Part shown: positions 6,538 to 23,347 of the stretch, one piece after another
How the letters are laid out: the number at the start of each line of letters is the position of its first letter
Numbering within the stretch: the first letter of the stretch is position 1
Origin: a virus
Lineage: Duplodnaviria; Heunggongvirae; Uroviricota; Caudoviricetes
Direction: 5' to 3' (one strand)
Virus record (IMG/VR): IMGVR_UViG_2627853983_000003
DNA: 44,347 nt
Notes under the pieces: generated by a model
Databases searched by the model: none
What the model was told of the DNA's origin: nothing
Seen by the model: the letters and a program-made list of their open reading frames with translations, nothing else
Translations under genes and position numbers: made by a program

Positions 6538-6595
6538 AAAAAGGGCGGCAGAGCAGTCACGGAGTAAAACTGATACCGCCAAACGTCACCAGAAA
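6538..6595 (-). ncRNA. dicF: DicF small RNA (ftsZ-targeting, Hfq-dependent), processed from the dicB-operon transcript
   Basis: Seen: minus strand reads TTTCTGGTGACGTTTGGCGGTATCAGTTTTACTCCGTGACTGCTCTGCCGCCCTTTTT, ending in a GC stem plus U-run. This matches my recollection of E. coli DicF and sits in the ~460-bp ORF-free, hairpin-rich gap between ydfC and dicB. Ends approximate because DicF is cut from a precursor. Confidence 0.7.
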
Positions 6596-12954: not shown

Positions 12955-13079
12955 TTTTATGGATCACCTTTCTGATTGATTTCATATTGGCGAGGTGACG
13001 TGAGTTAAGTAGAATGGCTGCGGGTGCTTGAGGCTATCTGTCTCAGGCATGAACACTGAAAGGCAGATAGAGAAAAGCC

Positions 13080-13150
13080 CCAGTTAACATTTCGCGTCCT
13101 GCAAGACGCTTAACATTAATCTGAGGCCCAATCTATGTCTCACAAATGTA
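13080..13150 (-). ncRNA. Putative Sok-like antisense RNA of the hok/mok locus
   Basis: Inference from locus architecture: hok loci carry a short antisense RNA across the mok translation start. Seen: candidate minus-strand promoter (TTGCCT-17-TAACCT) around 13155-13185 firing across the mok start. Boundaries are approximate. Confidence 0.3.
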
Positions 13151-13191
13151 GGTTAGCCTCTTACGTGCCGAAAGGCAAGGGGAAGCAGGCT

Positions 13192-13347
13192 ATGAAGCAG
13201 CAAAAGGCGATGTTAATCGCCCTGATCGTCATCTGTTTAACCGTCATAGTGACGGCACTGGTAACGAGGAAAGACCTCTGCGAGGTACGACTCCGAACCG
13301 GCCAGACGGAGGTCGCTGTCTTCACAGCTTACGAACCTGAGGAGTAA
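13192..13347 (+). CDS. hok: Hok-family type I toxin (51 aa); the in-frame upstream extension from ATG 13135 is the mok reading frame
   Basis: Seen: MKQQKAMLIALIVICLTVIVTALVTRKDLCEVRLRTGQTEVAVFTAYEPEE, a Hok/Gef-family sequence as I recall it; the 70-codon mok-like ORF (13135-13347) contains it in the same frame. Confidence 0.8.
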   Translation: MKQQKAMLIALIVICLTVIVTALVTRKDLCEVRLRTGQTEVAVFTAYEPEE

Positions 13348-17716: not shown

Positions 17717-17792
17717 CGGCCCTTTAGCTCAGTGGTGAGAGCGAGCGACTCATAATCGCCAGGTCGCTGGTTCAAATCCAGCAAGGGCCACC
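17717..17792 (+). tRNA. tRNA with CAU anticodon (Met, or Ile2 if lysidine-modified)
   Basis: Seen: hand-folded cloverleaf with 7-bp acceptor stem GGCCCTT/AAGGGCC, D-arm GCTC-AGTGGTGA-GAGC, anticodon loop CTCATAA (anticodon CAT), T-arm GCTGG-TTCAAAT-CCAGC, encoded CCA. Confidence 0.85.
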
Positions 17793-17893: not shown

Positions 17894-17970
17894 GCGTTGT
17901 TAGCTCAGCCGGACAGAGCAATTGCCTTCTAAGCAATCGGTCACTGGTTCGAATCCAGTACAGCGCGCCA
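17894..17970 (+). tRNA. tRNA-Arg (anticodon UCU)
   Basis: Seen: hand-folded cloverleaf with acceptor GCGTTGT/ACAGCGC (one G-U pair), anticodon arm ATTGC-CTTCTAA-GCAAT (anticodon TCT), T-arm ACTGG-TTCGAAT-CCAGT, encoded CCA. Confidence 0.85.
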
Positions 17971-18434: not shown

Positions 18435-18825
18435 ATACATATCTGGATTATCACCGGTTACGGTAAAAAGTGATTGCTTACTGTTTTTGTGAATGGCATT
18501 GCTGCAGCCGGATAATGTCAGTGCTGGCTGACGGTGTGCTGGTGGCGGGTGTGGTGGTTGTTGCTTTCCCGTTGCTGAAAAAGAAAACGCCAGACTGTTA
18601 GCCGGGTATCAGTTAGCGGGAGAAATTTTTAAATACTTCACAATTCAGGCGGTTGATTGTTGTCTGGTTTGCGGGGAGTTTGTTAAAAGAAACTGGCATG
18701 GTGAATCCCCCTGTGCGGAGGGGCAATCAGCGAGTAGGTATATGGGATAATCGCGGATTCAGGTGCTGGTACTGAATTCACCGGGAGGCACCCGGCACCA
18801 TGCAATGGCACATAGCGCCACTCTC

Positions 18826-18854
18826 CAGCCCCTCTCCGGAGGGGCTGTTTATAT
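18826..18854 (+). terminator. Intrinsic terminator inside the cargo island
   Basis: Seen: CAGCCCCTC-tccg-GAGGGGCTG 9-bp stem followed by TTTATATTGATTTT. Confidence 0.5.
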
Positions 18855-18881
18855 TGATTTTGTCAGATGTGAGTAAACTCC

Positions 18882-19477: not shown

Positions 19478-21331
19478 ATGGCATTTAAACACTATGATGT
19501 TGTCAGGGCGGCGTCGCCGTCAGATCTTGCGGAAAAGCTGACACATAAACTGAAAGAGGGCTGGCAGCCGTTTGGTAGTCCGGTGGCCATAACCCCTTAT
19601 ACCCTGATGCAGGCGATTGCAGCAGAAGGTGATGTGGTCGTCAGTGGTGCAACTGAGCCGGAGTGGTACTACGTCATCGTACTGGCCGGGCAATCCAATG
19701 CCATGGCTTACGGTGAAGGGCTTCCGCTTCCGGATTCATACGATGCGCCCCATCCGCGCATTAAGCAACTGGCCCGTCGTAACACAGTGACTCCCGGTGG
19801 TGAAGTATGCGTATTTAACGACATCATTCCTGCTGACCATTGTCTGCATGATGTTCAGGATATGAGTACGATTAACCATCCCCGGGCTGACCTGAGCAAA
19901 GGGCAGTACGGCTGTGTCGGACAGGGCTTACATATTGCCAAAAAACTGCTTCCGTATATCCCTAATAATGCGGGGATCCTGCTGGTACCATGCTGTCGTG
20001 GTGGTTCGGCATTCACCCAGGGCACGGAGGGGACATTCAGCGAGTCCACGGGGGCCAGTCAGGATTCGGCTCGCTGGGGAGTGGGTAAGCCGTTATATCA
20101 GGATCTGCTTTTCCGCACGAAGGCAGCATTGCAGAAAAACCCGAAAAACGTTTTGCTGGCGATATGCTGGATGCAGGGGGAATTCGATATGACGAATGCC
20201 AGTTACGCCCAGCAGCCAGCAGCATTTCTTGCAATGGTACAGCAGTTCCGTGCTGACCTTGCCGGGCTGGCGGCGCAGTGTCACGGTGGAAGTCCGGCAT
20301 CAGTCCCCTGGATTTGTGGCGACACGACATACGCGTGGAAACAAGAACACGGTACGCAATATGAAGTGGTATATGGTGCATATAAAGGTAAAGAATCCCA
20401 GCAGATTTATTTTGTTCCCTTTATGACCGATGGTAGCGGAGTTAATACACCGACAAACAACCCGTCAGAAGATCCTGATATTGCCGGGTCTGGTTATTAC
20501 GGTTCGGCATCCCGAACGAACAAAAACTGGGTATCATCAAATCGCCCGACGCATTTCAGCTCATGGGCGCGTCGTGGCATTATTCCCGATCGTATGGCAA
20601 CTGCTATTCTGAACGTAGCCGGTCGCACCTTAGCCTTCATTAGTGGTAAGGCACCGGAAATCAAACCCTCGCCCGGCGGCGACACGCCATCGGGGCCGTC
20701 TGAAGATGCATCCGTACGCACAATCTCCCTGTTGCCGACAGCCGGAGATGCTGCTGCGCAGGGCTGGAGCATTAAGAATGGCGGAATTCAGTTGTCAGAT
20801 GGTGTATTTAAGATCACCAAGCAGAGCAATAAAGCCTGGTCCCTGACGCGCCCGGTGGATGACGCAGTCTCCCTGCTGACACGGGGTGGCAGACTGAGCT
20901 GTAAGTTTCGACTGTCAGGCGCACTGACCAACAATCAGTTCGGTCTGGGAATTTATCTGTATACCGATGTAGCGTTACCTGACGTCGTGGCGATGACCGG
21001 GACTGGTAACCCGTTCCTGATGTCGTTCTTCACCCAGACCACAGACGGCAAACTGAATCTGATGCATCACAAGAAAGCAGGAAACACAAAGTTGGGCGAG
21101 TTCGGGAATTACAGTAACGACTGGCAGACGCTGGAGCTGGTGTTCACCGCCGGCAGTGCCACGGTTACTCCGAAACTGAATGGAGTGGCTGGCCCGGCAT
21201 TCCAGGTCATAAAAGACAGTCTGACACTGGGGCTGAATGCGCTGACGCTGACGGATATTACCAAAAATGCAACGTATGGCGTTGAGATAGAAAGTCTGGT
21301 GCTGGAGATAAATGCACCGGCATCATCATAA
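19478..21331 (+). CDS. nanS: Prophage sialate O-acetylesterase NanS-p (N-terminal DUF1737, SGNH-type esterase domain)
   Basis: Seen: N-terminus MAFKHYDVVRAASPSDLAEKL... and esterase motif VLAGQSNAMAY. Established: Stx and related lambdoid phages carry nanS-p between the stx position and the lysis genes. ATG at 19478 has a GGTGGA Shine-Dalgarno; 19463 is an alternative start. Confidence 0.8.
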   Translation: MAFKHYDVVRAASPSDLAEKLTHKLKEGWQPFGSPVAITPYTLMQAIAAEGDVVVSGATEPEWYYVIVLAGQSNAMAYGEGLPLPDSYDAPHPRIKQLARRNTVTPGGEVCVFNDIIPADHCLHDVQDMSTINHPRADLSKGQYGCVGQGLHIAKKLLPYIPNNAGILLVPCCRGGSAFTQGTEGTFSESTGASQDSARWGVGKPLYQDLLFRTKAALQKNPKNVLLAICWMQGEFDMTNASYAQQPAAFLAMVQQFRADLAGLAAQCHGGSPASVPWICGDTTYAWKQEHGTQYEVVYGAYKGKESQQIYFVPFMTDGSGVNTPTNNPSEDPDIAGSGYYGSASRTNKNWVSSNRPTHFSSWARRGIIPDRMATAILNVAGRTLAFISGKAPEIKPSPGGDTPSGPSEDASVRTISLLPTAGDAAAQGWSIKNGGIQLSDGVFKITKQSNKAWSLTRPVDDAVSLLTRGGRLSCKFRLSGALTNNQFGLGIYLYTDVALPDVVAMTGTGNPFLMSFFTQTTDGKLNLMHHKKAGNTKLGEFGNYSNDWQTLELVFTAGSATVTPKLNGVAGPAFQVIKDSLTLGLNALTLTDITKNATYGVEIESLVLEINAPASS

Positions 21332-21481
21332 AAAGTGAGCCAGTCAAATGGAAGGTATCGTTAAACTCACCGGTAGTGTCAGTGGGTCGTCTGAGATGCC
21401 TGCATGAGTTATCAGAGCCATCAGTACTTAACTGGTGGCTTTTTTTATTGTTGTCAGCTTCCGGATAACGGGAGACGGGGT

Positions 21482-21697
21482 ATGTACCAGATGGAAAAAA
21501 TCACAACAGGTGTGTCATACACCACGTCAGCGGTGGGAACGGGCTACTGGTTCCTGCAGTTGCTGGACAGGGTTTCCCCGTCTCAGTGGGCGGCAATAGG
21601 CGTGCTGGGGAGTCTGCTGTTTGGGCTGCTGACATATCTGACTAACCTGTATTTCAAAATCAGAGAGGACCGTCGTAAGGCGGCACGGGGAGAGTAA
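21482..21697 (+). CDS. Holin, phage-21 S-type pinholin with dual-start motif
   Basis: Seen: [71 protein letters not shown] closely resembles my recollection of the S21 pinholin; two in-frame Met codons at codons 1 and 4. Confidence 0.8.
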
Positions 21698-21701
21698 TTC
21701 A

Positions 21702-22046
21702 ATGACTCAAAACTATGAACTGATTGTGAAAGGGATCCGCAATTTTGAGAATAAAGTTACGGTAACTTTAGCGTTACGGGACAAAAAACGCTTTGACGGT
21801 GAAATTTTTGACCTGGACATCTCGCTGGACCGTGTTGAAGGTGCCGCGCTGGAGTTTTATGAGGCAGCAGCCAGAAGGAGCATCAGACAGGTCTTCCTGG
21901 ATGTTGCTGCCGGGTTATGTGAAGGGGATGAGCAGTCGCCGGAAAAGCGCCCCGTAATTTTAGAGGCGCAGGATGTGTTGATAACCTACAGAGGAAAACT
22001 ACCGGGAATAATTACGGGTTCTCTGAAGAGTCCGCCGAAATGGTAA
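21702..22046 (+). CDS. Hypothetical acidic protein between holin and endolysin (possibly YdfR-like)
   Basis: Seen: 114-aa ORF starting 5 nt after the holin stop with a G-rich Shine-Dalgarno. Inference: Qin carries ydfR in this slot, but I cannot confirm sequence identity from memory. Confidence 0.45.
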   Translation: MTQNYELIVKGIRNFENKVTVTLALRDKKRFDGEIFDLDISLDRVEGAALEFYEAAARRSIRQVFLDVAAGLCEGDEQSPEKRPVILEAQDVLITYRGKLPGIITGSLKSPPKW

Positions 22047-22284
22047 TTTTACCAGCATATTTTTCATCCAGTAATACAGCAAGCCGCCTGAAAGAGTCTT
22101 GTTGTTCCTGAGACCATTTGGGATTGCATGATTCAAACTGGATTGATGCCAGCGTTGATTGCATCTGTTCCCTTGGAATTGAGAATGCCAGATATGAGAA
22201 GGCGACGGTAAGGGTATTCACGTCTTCCCGAAGCCTGGAAATGCTGTCGAGCAACTCCTGTAGAGAAATGGTGTTATTGTCCAT
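22012..22284 (-). CDS. Hypothetical protein (90 aa) encoded antisense within the lysis cassette
   Basis: Seen: minus-strand ORF with GAGGA Shine-Dalgarno 7 nt before the ATG at 22284; its 3' end overlaps the 114-aa gene by 35 bp; inverted repeat CAGCCTG-N6-CAGGCTG about 40 bp upstream. No family recognised. Confidence 0.4.
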   Translation of the reverse strand: MDNNTISLQELLDSISRLREDVNTLTVAFSYLAFSIPREQMQSTLASIQFESCNPKWSQEQQDSFRRLAVLLDEKYAGKITISADSSENP

Positions 22285-22389
22285 AAATAATCCTCATGAT
22301 TGTATTGACCTGTTAGCAGCCTGAGGCAACAGGCTGGAACTGATAAACATATCCAGGGCTCAGAAACCGATAAATCCTGATAAATATCC

Positions 22390-22923
22390 ATGAACGCAAA
22401 AATCAGATACGGCCTGTCGGCTGCCGTTCTGGCGCTGATTGCCGCTGGTGCGCCTGCGCCTGACATTCTCGACCAGTTTCTGGATGAAAAGGAAGGTAAC
22501 CACACCACGGCATACCGTGATGGCGCGGGTATCTGGACCATCTGCCGCGGTGCCATCCTGGTGGATGGCAAACCTGTCGTTCCGGGCATGAAGTTGTCGA
22601 AGGAAAAATGCGACCGGGTTAACGCCATTGAGCGTGATAAGGCGCTGGCATGGGTGGAGAAAAACATCAAAGTGCCATTGACCGAACCCCAGAAAGCGGG
22701 GATCGCGTCATTCTGTCCGTACAACATTGGTCCCGGTAAGTGTTTCCCGTCGACGTTTTACAGACGAATTAATGCAGGTGATCGCAGGGGAGCATGCGAA
22801 GCGATTCGCTGGTGGATTAAGGACGGTGGCAGAGACTGCCGTATTCGCTCAAATAACTGTTACGGTCAGGTATTCCGTCGTGACCAGGAGAGCGCGCTGG
22901 CGTGCTGGGGAATCGACAGATAA
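22390..22923 (+). CDS. SAR endolysin (T4-lysozyme-like muramidase with N-terminal signal-anchor-release segment)
   Basis: Seen: Gly/Ala-rich weakly hydrophobic N-terminus (YGLSAAVLALIAAGAPA) followed by an E-x8-D-x5-T catalytic pattern (EGNHTTAYRDGAGIWT); pairs with the pinholin upstream. Confidence 0.85.
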   Translation: MNAKIRYGLSAAVLALIAAGAPAPDILDQFLDEKEGNHTTAYRDGAGIWTICRGAILVDGKPVVPGMKLSKEKCDRVNAIERDKALAWVEKNIKVPLTEPQKAGIASFCPYNIGPGKCFPSTFYRRINAGDRRGACEAIRWWIKDGGRDCRIRSNNCYGQVFRRDQESALACWGIDR

Positions 22924-23014
22924 GCAGAATATTTTGCTGAAAAATGAGGTTGGCCAACGCGGGCGGATAACACGAAGTCCTGTGAACTGGCAAAACCTAA
23001 GTGAATAAAAGTAA

Positions 23015-23052
23015 AAACCCCGTTTGTTGGCAGCAAGCGGGGTTTTGTTTTT
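23015..23052 (+). terminator. Intrinsic terminator downstream of the endolysin gene
   Basis: Seen: AAACCCCG...CGGGGTTT stem followed by TGTTTTT. Confidence 0.5.
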
Positions 23053-23117
23053 ATGGCAGTAAGCTATGGGAGGCTGCCTTGATTGATTTTAGCAAACTGA
23101 TTAGGGAGTTGCGACTC

Positions 23118-23213
23118 ATGATTAGTCAATTACCAAACTGGAAATTTTTGCTGGTCTGGAGCATCCCTTTTTTATGGGTAGTATCCCAGTTAATTGTGGC
23201 AATTAAGGGGTAG
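23118..23213 (+). CDS. Mini-ORF 1 (31 aa), predicted single-pass membrane peptide
   Basis: Seen: MISQLPNWKFLLVWSIPFLWVVSQLIVAIKG with GGGAG Shine-Dalgarno 11 nt upstream; its stop is 2 nt before the next ATG. Confidence 0.35.
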   Translation: MISQLPNWKFLLVWSIPFLWVVSQLIVAIKG

Positions 23214-23215
23214 CT

Positions 23216-23347
23216 ATGTCAGACAAACTCATAACGCCGGCAAAGGTCCTGTGTGTGATTGTCGGTATTTCATTTTCACTAATGCTGGTTGCTCTTTTTC
23301 TGTCCCTCGCCTGGGTGATGTTGTCTTCGTCGGGGCTGCTGGGGTGA
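23216..23347 (+). CDS. Mini-ORF 2 (43 aa), predicted membrane peptide
   Basis: Seen: MSDKLITPAKVLCVIVGISFSLMLVALFLSLAWVMLSSSGLLG with AAGGGG Shine-Dalgarno; its stop overlaps the next start (GTGA). Confidence 0.4.
   Translation: MSDKLITPAKVLCVIVGISFSLMLVALFLSLAWVMLSSSGLLG

Follow-up and report, generated by a model that had tools for sequence, protein, structure and literature searches.

We analyzed the DNA of a tailed virus (Caudoviricetes; IMG/VR record IMGVR_UViG_2627853983_000003), the whole stretch of 44,347 nucleotides being referred to here as the window, for a pair of convergent genes that lies between the holin and the endolysin (positions 21,702 to 22,389). Our preferred reading, which we hold at a probability of about 0.4, is that the pair forms a small two-gene cargo module of the moron type within the late (lysis) operon of a lambdoid E. 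coli prophage, in which a 90-residue protein encoded on the antisense strand would act upon its YdfR-type partner or upon the target of that partner. A sequence-only reading of the same DNA had proposed a moron layout, and this proposal is supported by the presence or absence of the antisense gene in otherwise collinear cassettes, by its deviant base composition, by the purifying selection acting upon it, and by the recurrence of the pair in other genera.

Evidence that the antisense gene encodes a conserved protein

The forward gene (21702-22046, + strand) encodes a YdfR homolog of 114 residues and the antisense gene (22012-22284, - strand) a protein of 90 residues, the two open reading frames (ORFs) overlapping by 35 bp at their 3' ends (22012-22046). 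A GAGGA Shine-Dalgarno sequence (22291-22295, - strand; TCCTC on the + strand) is found 6 nt before the ATG of the antisense gene. The convergent pair between holin and endolysin, the extent of its overlap and the Shine-Dalgarno sequence had all been described by the sequence-only reading, and all were found at the positions that it gave.

The 90-residue protein matched the family phrog_2411 over its full length (E 1.1e-58), with residues 1-90 aligned to positions 1-90 of the 90-position profile. We identified 62 homologs, in which the length is kept at approximately 90 residues and identity extends down to 58%. When 1.84 billion representatives were searched exhaustively with a profile, only 20 clusters were obtained, including members at 24-42% identity, and the family was seen in Enterobacterales only. 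The ratio of nonsynonymous to synonymous substitution rates (dN/dS) was 0.08-0.40 over the 78 codons outside the overlap. The frame of the 90-residue protein is the sole one of the six that is free of stop codons in all 10 DNA homologs; the complementary frame, with which it shares wobble positions, has a similarly low ratio of nonsynonymous to synonymous differences (pN/pS), as expected, yet contains stops in most of the sequences. An AGGA-type motif is kept 5-9 nt before the start codon in homologs from E. coli, Citrobacter, Sodalis and Serratia and in one further locus (L012). Because of the low dN/dS, the single frame open in all homologs and the conserved Shine-Dalgarno sequence, we consider the 90-residue ORF to be genuine and, as judged by sequence comparison, a conserved protein-coding gene under purifying selection. 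An ORF of 68 residues lies opposite this gene (22118-22324, + strand), and several homologs keep it open in part; the low pN/pS of this ORF is an artefact to be expected of the complementary frame, and stops interrupt it in most of the sequences.

The 90-residue protein has an isoelectric point (pI) of 4.5, a net charge of -5.5 and no transmembrane segment, the maximum Kyte-Doolittle value for a 19-residue window being 0.75. The AlphaFold2 model, which has a predicted local distance difference test (pLDDT) score of 74, contains three helices (residues 8-34, 38-52 and 59-77), and the product is therefore predicted to be soluble, acidic and three-helical. A membrane antiholin or lysis-inhibition factor would need a transmembrane or periplasmic location to reach the holin; this was not found, there being no hydrophobic segment and the model being that of an all-helical soluble protein, with which an action in the cytoplasm would still be compatible. 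Scans of the protein and its distant relatives against Pfam, NCBIfam and PADLOC gave nothing significant, and a PDB sequence search was empty. The database names of the protein are limited to 'hypothetical protein' and 'Ybl58', and literature searches with ybl58, phrog_2411, the WP accessions and DUF1327 returned nothing on the gene. A structure search of both proteins, as the sequence-only reading had suggested, gave no informative fold match for the 90-residue protein and non-significant matches only for the YdfR model.

The forward gene is a ydfR homolog

The 114-residue protein matched PF07041 (DUF1327) over residues 1-111 with a score of 145.2 bits, compared to a gathering cutoff of 25 (E 7.3e-43), and matched phrog_406 at 4.3e-68; its gene is called 'YdfR family protein' in both RefSeq and GenBank. 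The forward protein, which the sequence-only reading had not recognized, is thus an ordinary YdfR/DUF1327 homolog. That reading had also named two outcomes that would speak against its interpretation of the pair, namely that the 114-residue protein was an ordinary YdfR homolog and that the antisense ORF lacked conservation or expression; the former is what we found, but the antisense ORF does show conservation. The description of the 114-residue protein as acidic likewise requires qualification, since it is only mildly so (pI 5.5, net charge -1.5) and the 90-residue protein is the acidic member of the pair.

The 114-residue protein contains no hydrophobic segment. Its AlphaFold2 model (pLDDT 65) has three strands, a long helix at residues 50-73 and a low-confidence beta tail, so that the predicted architecture is a beta-beta-beta-alpha core followed by a C-terminal 'ITGSLKSPPKW' tail. 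When this model was used in a Foldseek search, PUR-repeat nucleic-acid-binding proteins (binding single-stranded DNA or RNA) ranked first, at a non-significant level (E 0.1).

Among the closest known systems is YdfR of the Qin prophage of E. coli K-12, which is reported to bind RNase E (Rne 1-597/598) at the N-terminal half of the enzyme, where its catalytic domain lies, as determined by two-hybrid analysis and by co-purification of Rne 1-598 (PMC13232886, 2026). Residues 1-72 of Qin YdfR suffice for this interaction in the two-hybrid system, and a DNase-resistant nucleic acid (RNA) co-purifies with the protein; Qin YdfR is barely expressed under standard growth, and its overproduction results in no growth defect (PMC13232886). 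Residues 1-72 are conserved in the 114-residue protein of the window. As a weak lead, the modeled PUR-repeat resemblance of the YdfR core (21702-21920, residues 1-73) may fit the reported co-purification of RNA. The gene order essQ-ydfR-rrrQ of Qin corresponds to the order holin-ydfR-(antisense)-lysozyme of the window, and both cassettes have an S21-type holin. Qin differs in that its YdfR has 103 residues and another C-terminus, without the ...ITGSLKSPPKW tail, and in that ydfR overlaps rrrQ directly, with no antisense gene between them. The binding of RNase E and RNA has been reported for the Qin protein only (PMC13232886).

A cargo hotspot between ydfR and the endolysin

Alignment of the window with BP-4795, Chlobot and Stx2 phage 86 delimited a cargo segment of approximately 307 bp (~22037-22343), which is an indel relative to BP-4795. 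The segment contains all but the last ~25 nt of the antisense gene, together with the Shine-Dalgarno sequence, a -10-like hexamer (TACAAT) and a hairpin, so that ~59 bp of its own upstream DNA travels with the gene. It is flanked on one side by the conserved 3' end of ydfR (...ITGSLK-PP) and on the other by the conserved leader of the endolysin. Consistent with this boundary, the YdfR variants that we compared have residues 1-111 in common and diverge exactly after ...GSLKxPP. The G+C content of the cargo is 44%, compared to 54% for the holin and 55% for the lysozyme.

The comparison with related prophages that had been called for by the sequence-only reading demonstrated that the cargo segment is absent from BP-4795, Qin and the loci encoding P0091; the slot is also empty in the common 116-residue 'ESQP' cassettes. 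Among 5426 complete E. coli genomes, the cassette was matched in 4408 and the cargo DNA in 1221, including the BL21 lineage, while only 3 of 50,697 phage records contained the cargo. In other cassettes the slot is occupied by antisense ORFs of other families. One of these is gp06 of Stx2 phage 86 (phrog_1853), which lies beside a 268-residue YdfR and starts 10 bp past the end of ydfR; the others are ORFs of phrog_2572 and phrog_18136, each of which lies beside a different 176-residue YdfR and overlaps the variant YdfR C-terminus. Like the 90-residue gene, these ORFs are found between the ydfR core and the endolysin, are antisense and convergent with ydfR, and are of similar size (86-104 residues); they differ in being paired with YdfR variants of 176 to 268 residues that carry extra C-terminal helices. 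Homology among the four antisense ORFs of the slot was considered and rejected, none being detectable by sequence or by profile. No match at E <= 1 was obtained in PADLOC-DB v2 for the 114-residue YdfR, the 90-residue protein, the 268-residue YdfR of Stx2 phage 86 or gp06.

Because the segment is absent from related cassettes, and is replaced in others by three unrelated antisense ORFs, the junction of the ydfR 3' end with the endolysin leader is best described, on the basis of these alignments, as a cargo hotspot. The antisense gene displays three of the marks by which morons are recognized: presence or absence at the same site, deviant base composition, and an orientation against the late operon. 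The moron concept goes back to Hendrix and Juhala, and examples are lambda bor and other lambdoid morons. The bor product is a lipoprotein with a serum-resistance phenotype, and the gene has its own promoter and lies 3' of Rz. The gene of the window is similar to the lambdoid morons in being an extra, variably present gene by or in the late region that opposes late transcription and has a deviant composition. It differs from bor in that its product is a predicted cytoplasmic three-helix protein and in that the gene forms a convergent, 3'-overlapping pair with a gene of the late strand. Another cargo slot of the lysis region was observed in a related prophage (L008/L009:1589-2123), which has a ParE-like/ParD-like toxin-antitoxin pair just 3' of its endolysin.

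Recurrence of the convergent pair in other phages and genera

In every phage-borne locus that we examined, the homolog of the 90-residue gene converges on and overlaps an ORF of the late strand. These late-strand partners carry an N-terminal helix motif, (S/T)LExRVxxLE, and all of them except the partner in L012/L013 end in the tail K-x-G-x-I-x4-ITGSL(K/R)xP. The contexts of the pair are varied. The partner in Citrobacter meridianamericanus has 238 residues, and its gene precedes those for a different holin (PF05106) and a CHAP endolysin. Partners of 77 and 85 residues are found on short contigs, the former in a Citrobacter metagenome-assembled genome (MAG; L007) and the latter in L012/L013, and a partner of 62 residues is found near terminase genes in Klebsiella. 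In a prophage of Atlantibacter hermannii (L047:3001-3518) the pair is located between tail genes M and L, which are ordinarily neighbours in lambda, and it consists of an antisense gene of 88 residues and a late-strand ORF of 71 residues that ends in ...FGDLKKPPSY.

In an hhalign comparison, the profile of the partners could be aligned to the tail of YdfR (E 2.9e-4, probability 41%), and the Citrobacter partner of L007 matches the extra C-terminal helix of a 176-residue YdfR at E 2e-8. Because the pair recurs across loci with shared partner motifs and a shared tail, the moving unit is the convergent pair, the forward member of which, in E. coli, is YdfR.

DNA upstream of the antisense gene

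The -10-like hexamer TACAAT (22299-22304, - strand) was found by eye and is a candidate only. The form TAnnAT is kept in the window, Chlobot/BL21, L008 and L018, and GACAAT is found in L019. The best -35-like hexamer, TTGCCT (22324-22329), lies 19 nt from TACAAT, which is a poor spacing, and the TACAAT element was not reported by a consensus scan. A LexA box was sought by eye 5' of the window gene and of its orthologs in Serratia, which adjoin dinI, and none was found.

The inverted repeat CAGCCTG-N6-CAGGCTG, located 5' of the antisense gene at 22317-22336, had been proposed as a possible operator. The repeat exists and has a folding energy of about -13 to -14 kcal/mol with its flanks, but it is statistically unremarkable. 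The window contains 44 perfect 7-bp inverted repeats with loops of 3-8 nt, whereas dinucleotide-shuffled versions contained 19 on average and 34 at most. Homologs retain only ~5 bp of the stem and show no compensatory changes. We reject the operator on these two grounds, that such repeats are frequent in this DNA and that the stem is poorly conserved.

In ST131 and related chromosomes, the IS3-family element ISEc52 is found ~30 bp 5' of the ATG of the 90-residue gene (at a site equivalent to window ~22314; L044:2475-3800), between this gene and the endolysin. The endolysin is thereby cut off from the holin and ydfR, and the element takes the place of the hairpin and -35-like region; the 90-residue gene is still 100% identical.

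Other features of the lysis cassette and the window

The same region, with 100% identity, is present in Escherichia phage vB_EcoS-783R2 and in prophages of many E. coli chromosomes, including ST131, in which the RefSeq labels are, in order, class II holin, YdfR family protein, hypothetical protein and lysozyme. The class II holin of the phage 21 S type (21482-21697, + strand) has an ATG, read from the sequence, at 21482 and two early Met codons (MYQM...). The stretch 21485-21697 matches PF04971 at 8.6e-33 and also the 'holin' families phrog_9876 and phrog_20, and the identical phage record ON470626 in GenBank names the gene at 21482-21697 holin. The lysozyme-type endolysin (22390-22923, + strand) matches PF00959 at 9.3e-24 and phrog_7 'endolysin'; its weakly hydrophobic N-terminus, MNAKIRYGLSAAVLALIAAGAPAP, suggests that it is of the signal-anchor-release type.

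Two hairpins border the cassette. A G+C-rich hairpin with T-runs on both sides (23014-23046) directly follows the endolysin stop codon and resembles an intrinsic, bidirectional terminator within the late operon, and a terminator-like hairpin followed by a T-run (21414-21442) is found between the gene for a 622-residue SASA/NanS-type esterase and the start of the holin. An Rfam scan of 21300-23300 found no RNA family. Elsewhere in the prophage, Rfam matches at the gathering score were obtained on the - strand for C4 antisense RNA (1430-1517), isrK (1541-1615) and DicF (6543-6594), and on the + strand for sok of hok/sok (13022-13197), STnc100 (18667-18856) and two tRNAs (17718-17790 and 17894-17967).

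Discussion

Under the preferred reading, YdfR, probably a late protein that binds RNase E and RNA, would be read on the late transcript along with the holin and endolysin. The 90-residue gene would be transcribed independently, probably in the lysogen as is typical of a moron, and its product would bind and restrain the YdfR-type partner or the target of that partner. The 3' overlap may result in mutual antisense or transcriptional interference between the two genes, such that the 90-residue gene would prevail during lysogeny and YdfR would prevail once Q-antiterminated late transcription has started.

Several observations weigh against this reading, most of them concerning copies of either gene that occur alone. 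In six Serratia species, the dinI-bssS interval contains a solo ortholog of 92-98 residues, seen on at least 1000 contigs and with no partner. These orthologs share with the window protein the ...AFSYLAFS...ES.. motif of the family, have their own Shine-Dalgarno sequence, and have an upstream region that follows the dinI terminator; they differ in having no convergent partner, in occupying a syntenic core-genome site outside of any prophage, and in being only ~28-39% identical. Examples are L030:2956-3237, L014:4001-4279 and L035:2962-3258, from Serratia spp. and one Enterobacterales MAG, all named hypothetical only. A solo homolog is also found in Sodalis ligni, solo copies occur on islands as well, and 73 E. 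coli plasmids carry a solo copy at 60-80% identity (64% for those listed). Of the matching plasmid records, 70 of 75 are conjugative, and the one plasmid copy inspected adjoins an autotransporter gene. One copy lies next to iha and has remnants of the endolysin leader, and one E. coli lineage (L008) has a degraded partner and an intact 90-residue gene. Conversely, ydfR with the same tail is common without the 90-residue gene. The similarity of the YdfR tail to the partners is moderately significant and could in part reflect hitch-hiking of overlapping DNA. A simple consensus scan identified neither a sigma-70 promoter nor an intrinsic terminator for the antisense gene, and the fold of its product is a generic helical bundle with no informative structural match.

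The solo copies support the main rival of this reading, which we consider nearly as probable: the 90-residue gene would be a single-gene moron that acts autonomously and is functionally unconnected with YdfR. The prophage would then express it to the benefit of the host, for instance in defence, in exclusion, or in a stress-related or regulatory capacity that the Serratia orthologs would have in common with it, and the recurrence of partners would reflect only co-transfer of overlapping DNA. Such autonomy is consistent with the solo syntenic orthologs in Serratia, the solo copies on F-type plasmids and next to iha, and the integrity of the gene where its partner is degraded; the antisense orientation and low G+C content are typical of morons, and the occupation of the ydfR-endolysin junction by three unrelated antisense ORFs points to a generic slot for cargo. 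However, the partner similarity spans ~36 residues, well past the 11 codons of the overlap, the helix motif recurs in partners from at least five contexts, and the 90-residue protein matches no known defence protein. We consider it quite improbable that the gene acts chiefly at the RNA level, with convergent transcription or antisense RNA damping leaky or late expression of ydfR, holin and endolysin (and so affecting lysis timing and prophage stability) and the protein being secondary. The 35-bp overlap and the lack of a detected terminator imply that the transcript of the 90-residue gene would run antisense into ydfR and the holin, and all of the alternative cargos of the slot are antisense as well. 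A purely RNA-level role is nevertheless disfavored because selection acts on the 90-residue protein; this selection is strong, the family persists outside of phages, and the region has no Rfam match.

The sequence-only reading had suggested superinfection exclusion, lysis-timing control or a toxin-antitoxin-like pair, and for these specific functions we obtained no support from PADLOC, Pfam or NCBIfam. That YdfR and the 90-residue protein form a toxin-antitoxin or abortive-infection pair appears very doubtful. The tight convergent arrangement is conserved across genera and the 90-residue protein is small and acidic, like many antitoxins, but ydfR often occurs without the 90-residue gene, which itself occurs without ydfR or any partner, and no PADLOC or Pfam toxin or antitoxin was matched. 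Overproduced Qin YdfR causes no growth defect, a result that does not cover the 114-residue variant of the window (PMC13232886). The pair is thus disfavored as a toxin-antitoxin system because Qin YdfR is non-toxic and because co-occurrence of the two genes is not strict. Least credible, and all but ruled out, is the explanation that the 90-residue ORF is a spurious shadow ORF without function. The databases hold no functional annotation for it, the consensus scan found no promoter, and the opposite-strand frame also has a low pN/pS; but only the 90-residue frame lacks stops in every one of the 10 homologs, most of which have stops in the opposite frame, and the frame, the length and the Shine-Dalgarno sequence are retained by distant homologs (24-42% identity) in unrelated loci.

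The preferred reading, a single module with a 90-residue protein acting on a YdfR-type partner or target, can be extended into a broader proposal that we consider unlikely. The ydfR-endolysin slot, and equivalent slots in the tail and terminase operons of enterobacterial phages, would hold diversifying cognate convergent pairs, each made up of a late helix-plus-tail effector acting on host RNA decay and an antisense neutralizer expressed in lysogeny. The unrelated antisense ORFs found with different C-terminal extensions of YdfR would then represent alternative specificities, and the neutralizer of a lysogen could also render harmless the YdfR-type proteins brought in by superinfecting relatives. 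If true, this would constitute a new principle of exclusion or immunity that acts on the hijacking of RNase E.

The YdfR family is known, and the 90-residue gene is already catalogued as a hypothetical protein and as a PHROG family. In the literature searched, including searches that combined moron, holin and antisense, we found no description of the mobile convergent pair, nor any that treats the junction of ydfR and endolysin as a hotspot occupied by four or more unrelated antisense ORFs. If the gene is only an ordinary moron, the outcome would be a tidy annotation in which the forward gene is a plain YdfR and the operator is unsupported. If instead the 90-residue gene is expressed and acts on a YdfR-type partner, this would provide a function for a gene found in about one-fifth of complete E. 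coli genomes, including the ST131 and BL21 lineages, and for its core-genome orthologs in Serratia. It would also help to explain the presence of an RNase E-binding protein inside a lambdoid lysis cassette, and would mark out the junction of ydfR and endolysin as a cargo hotspot that merits mining.

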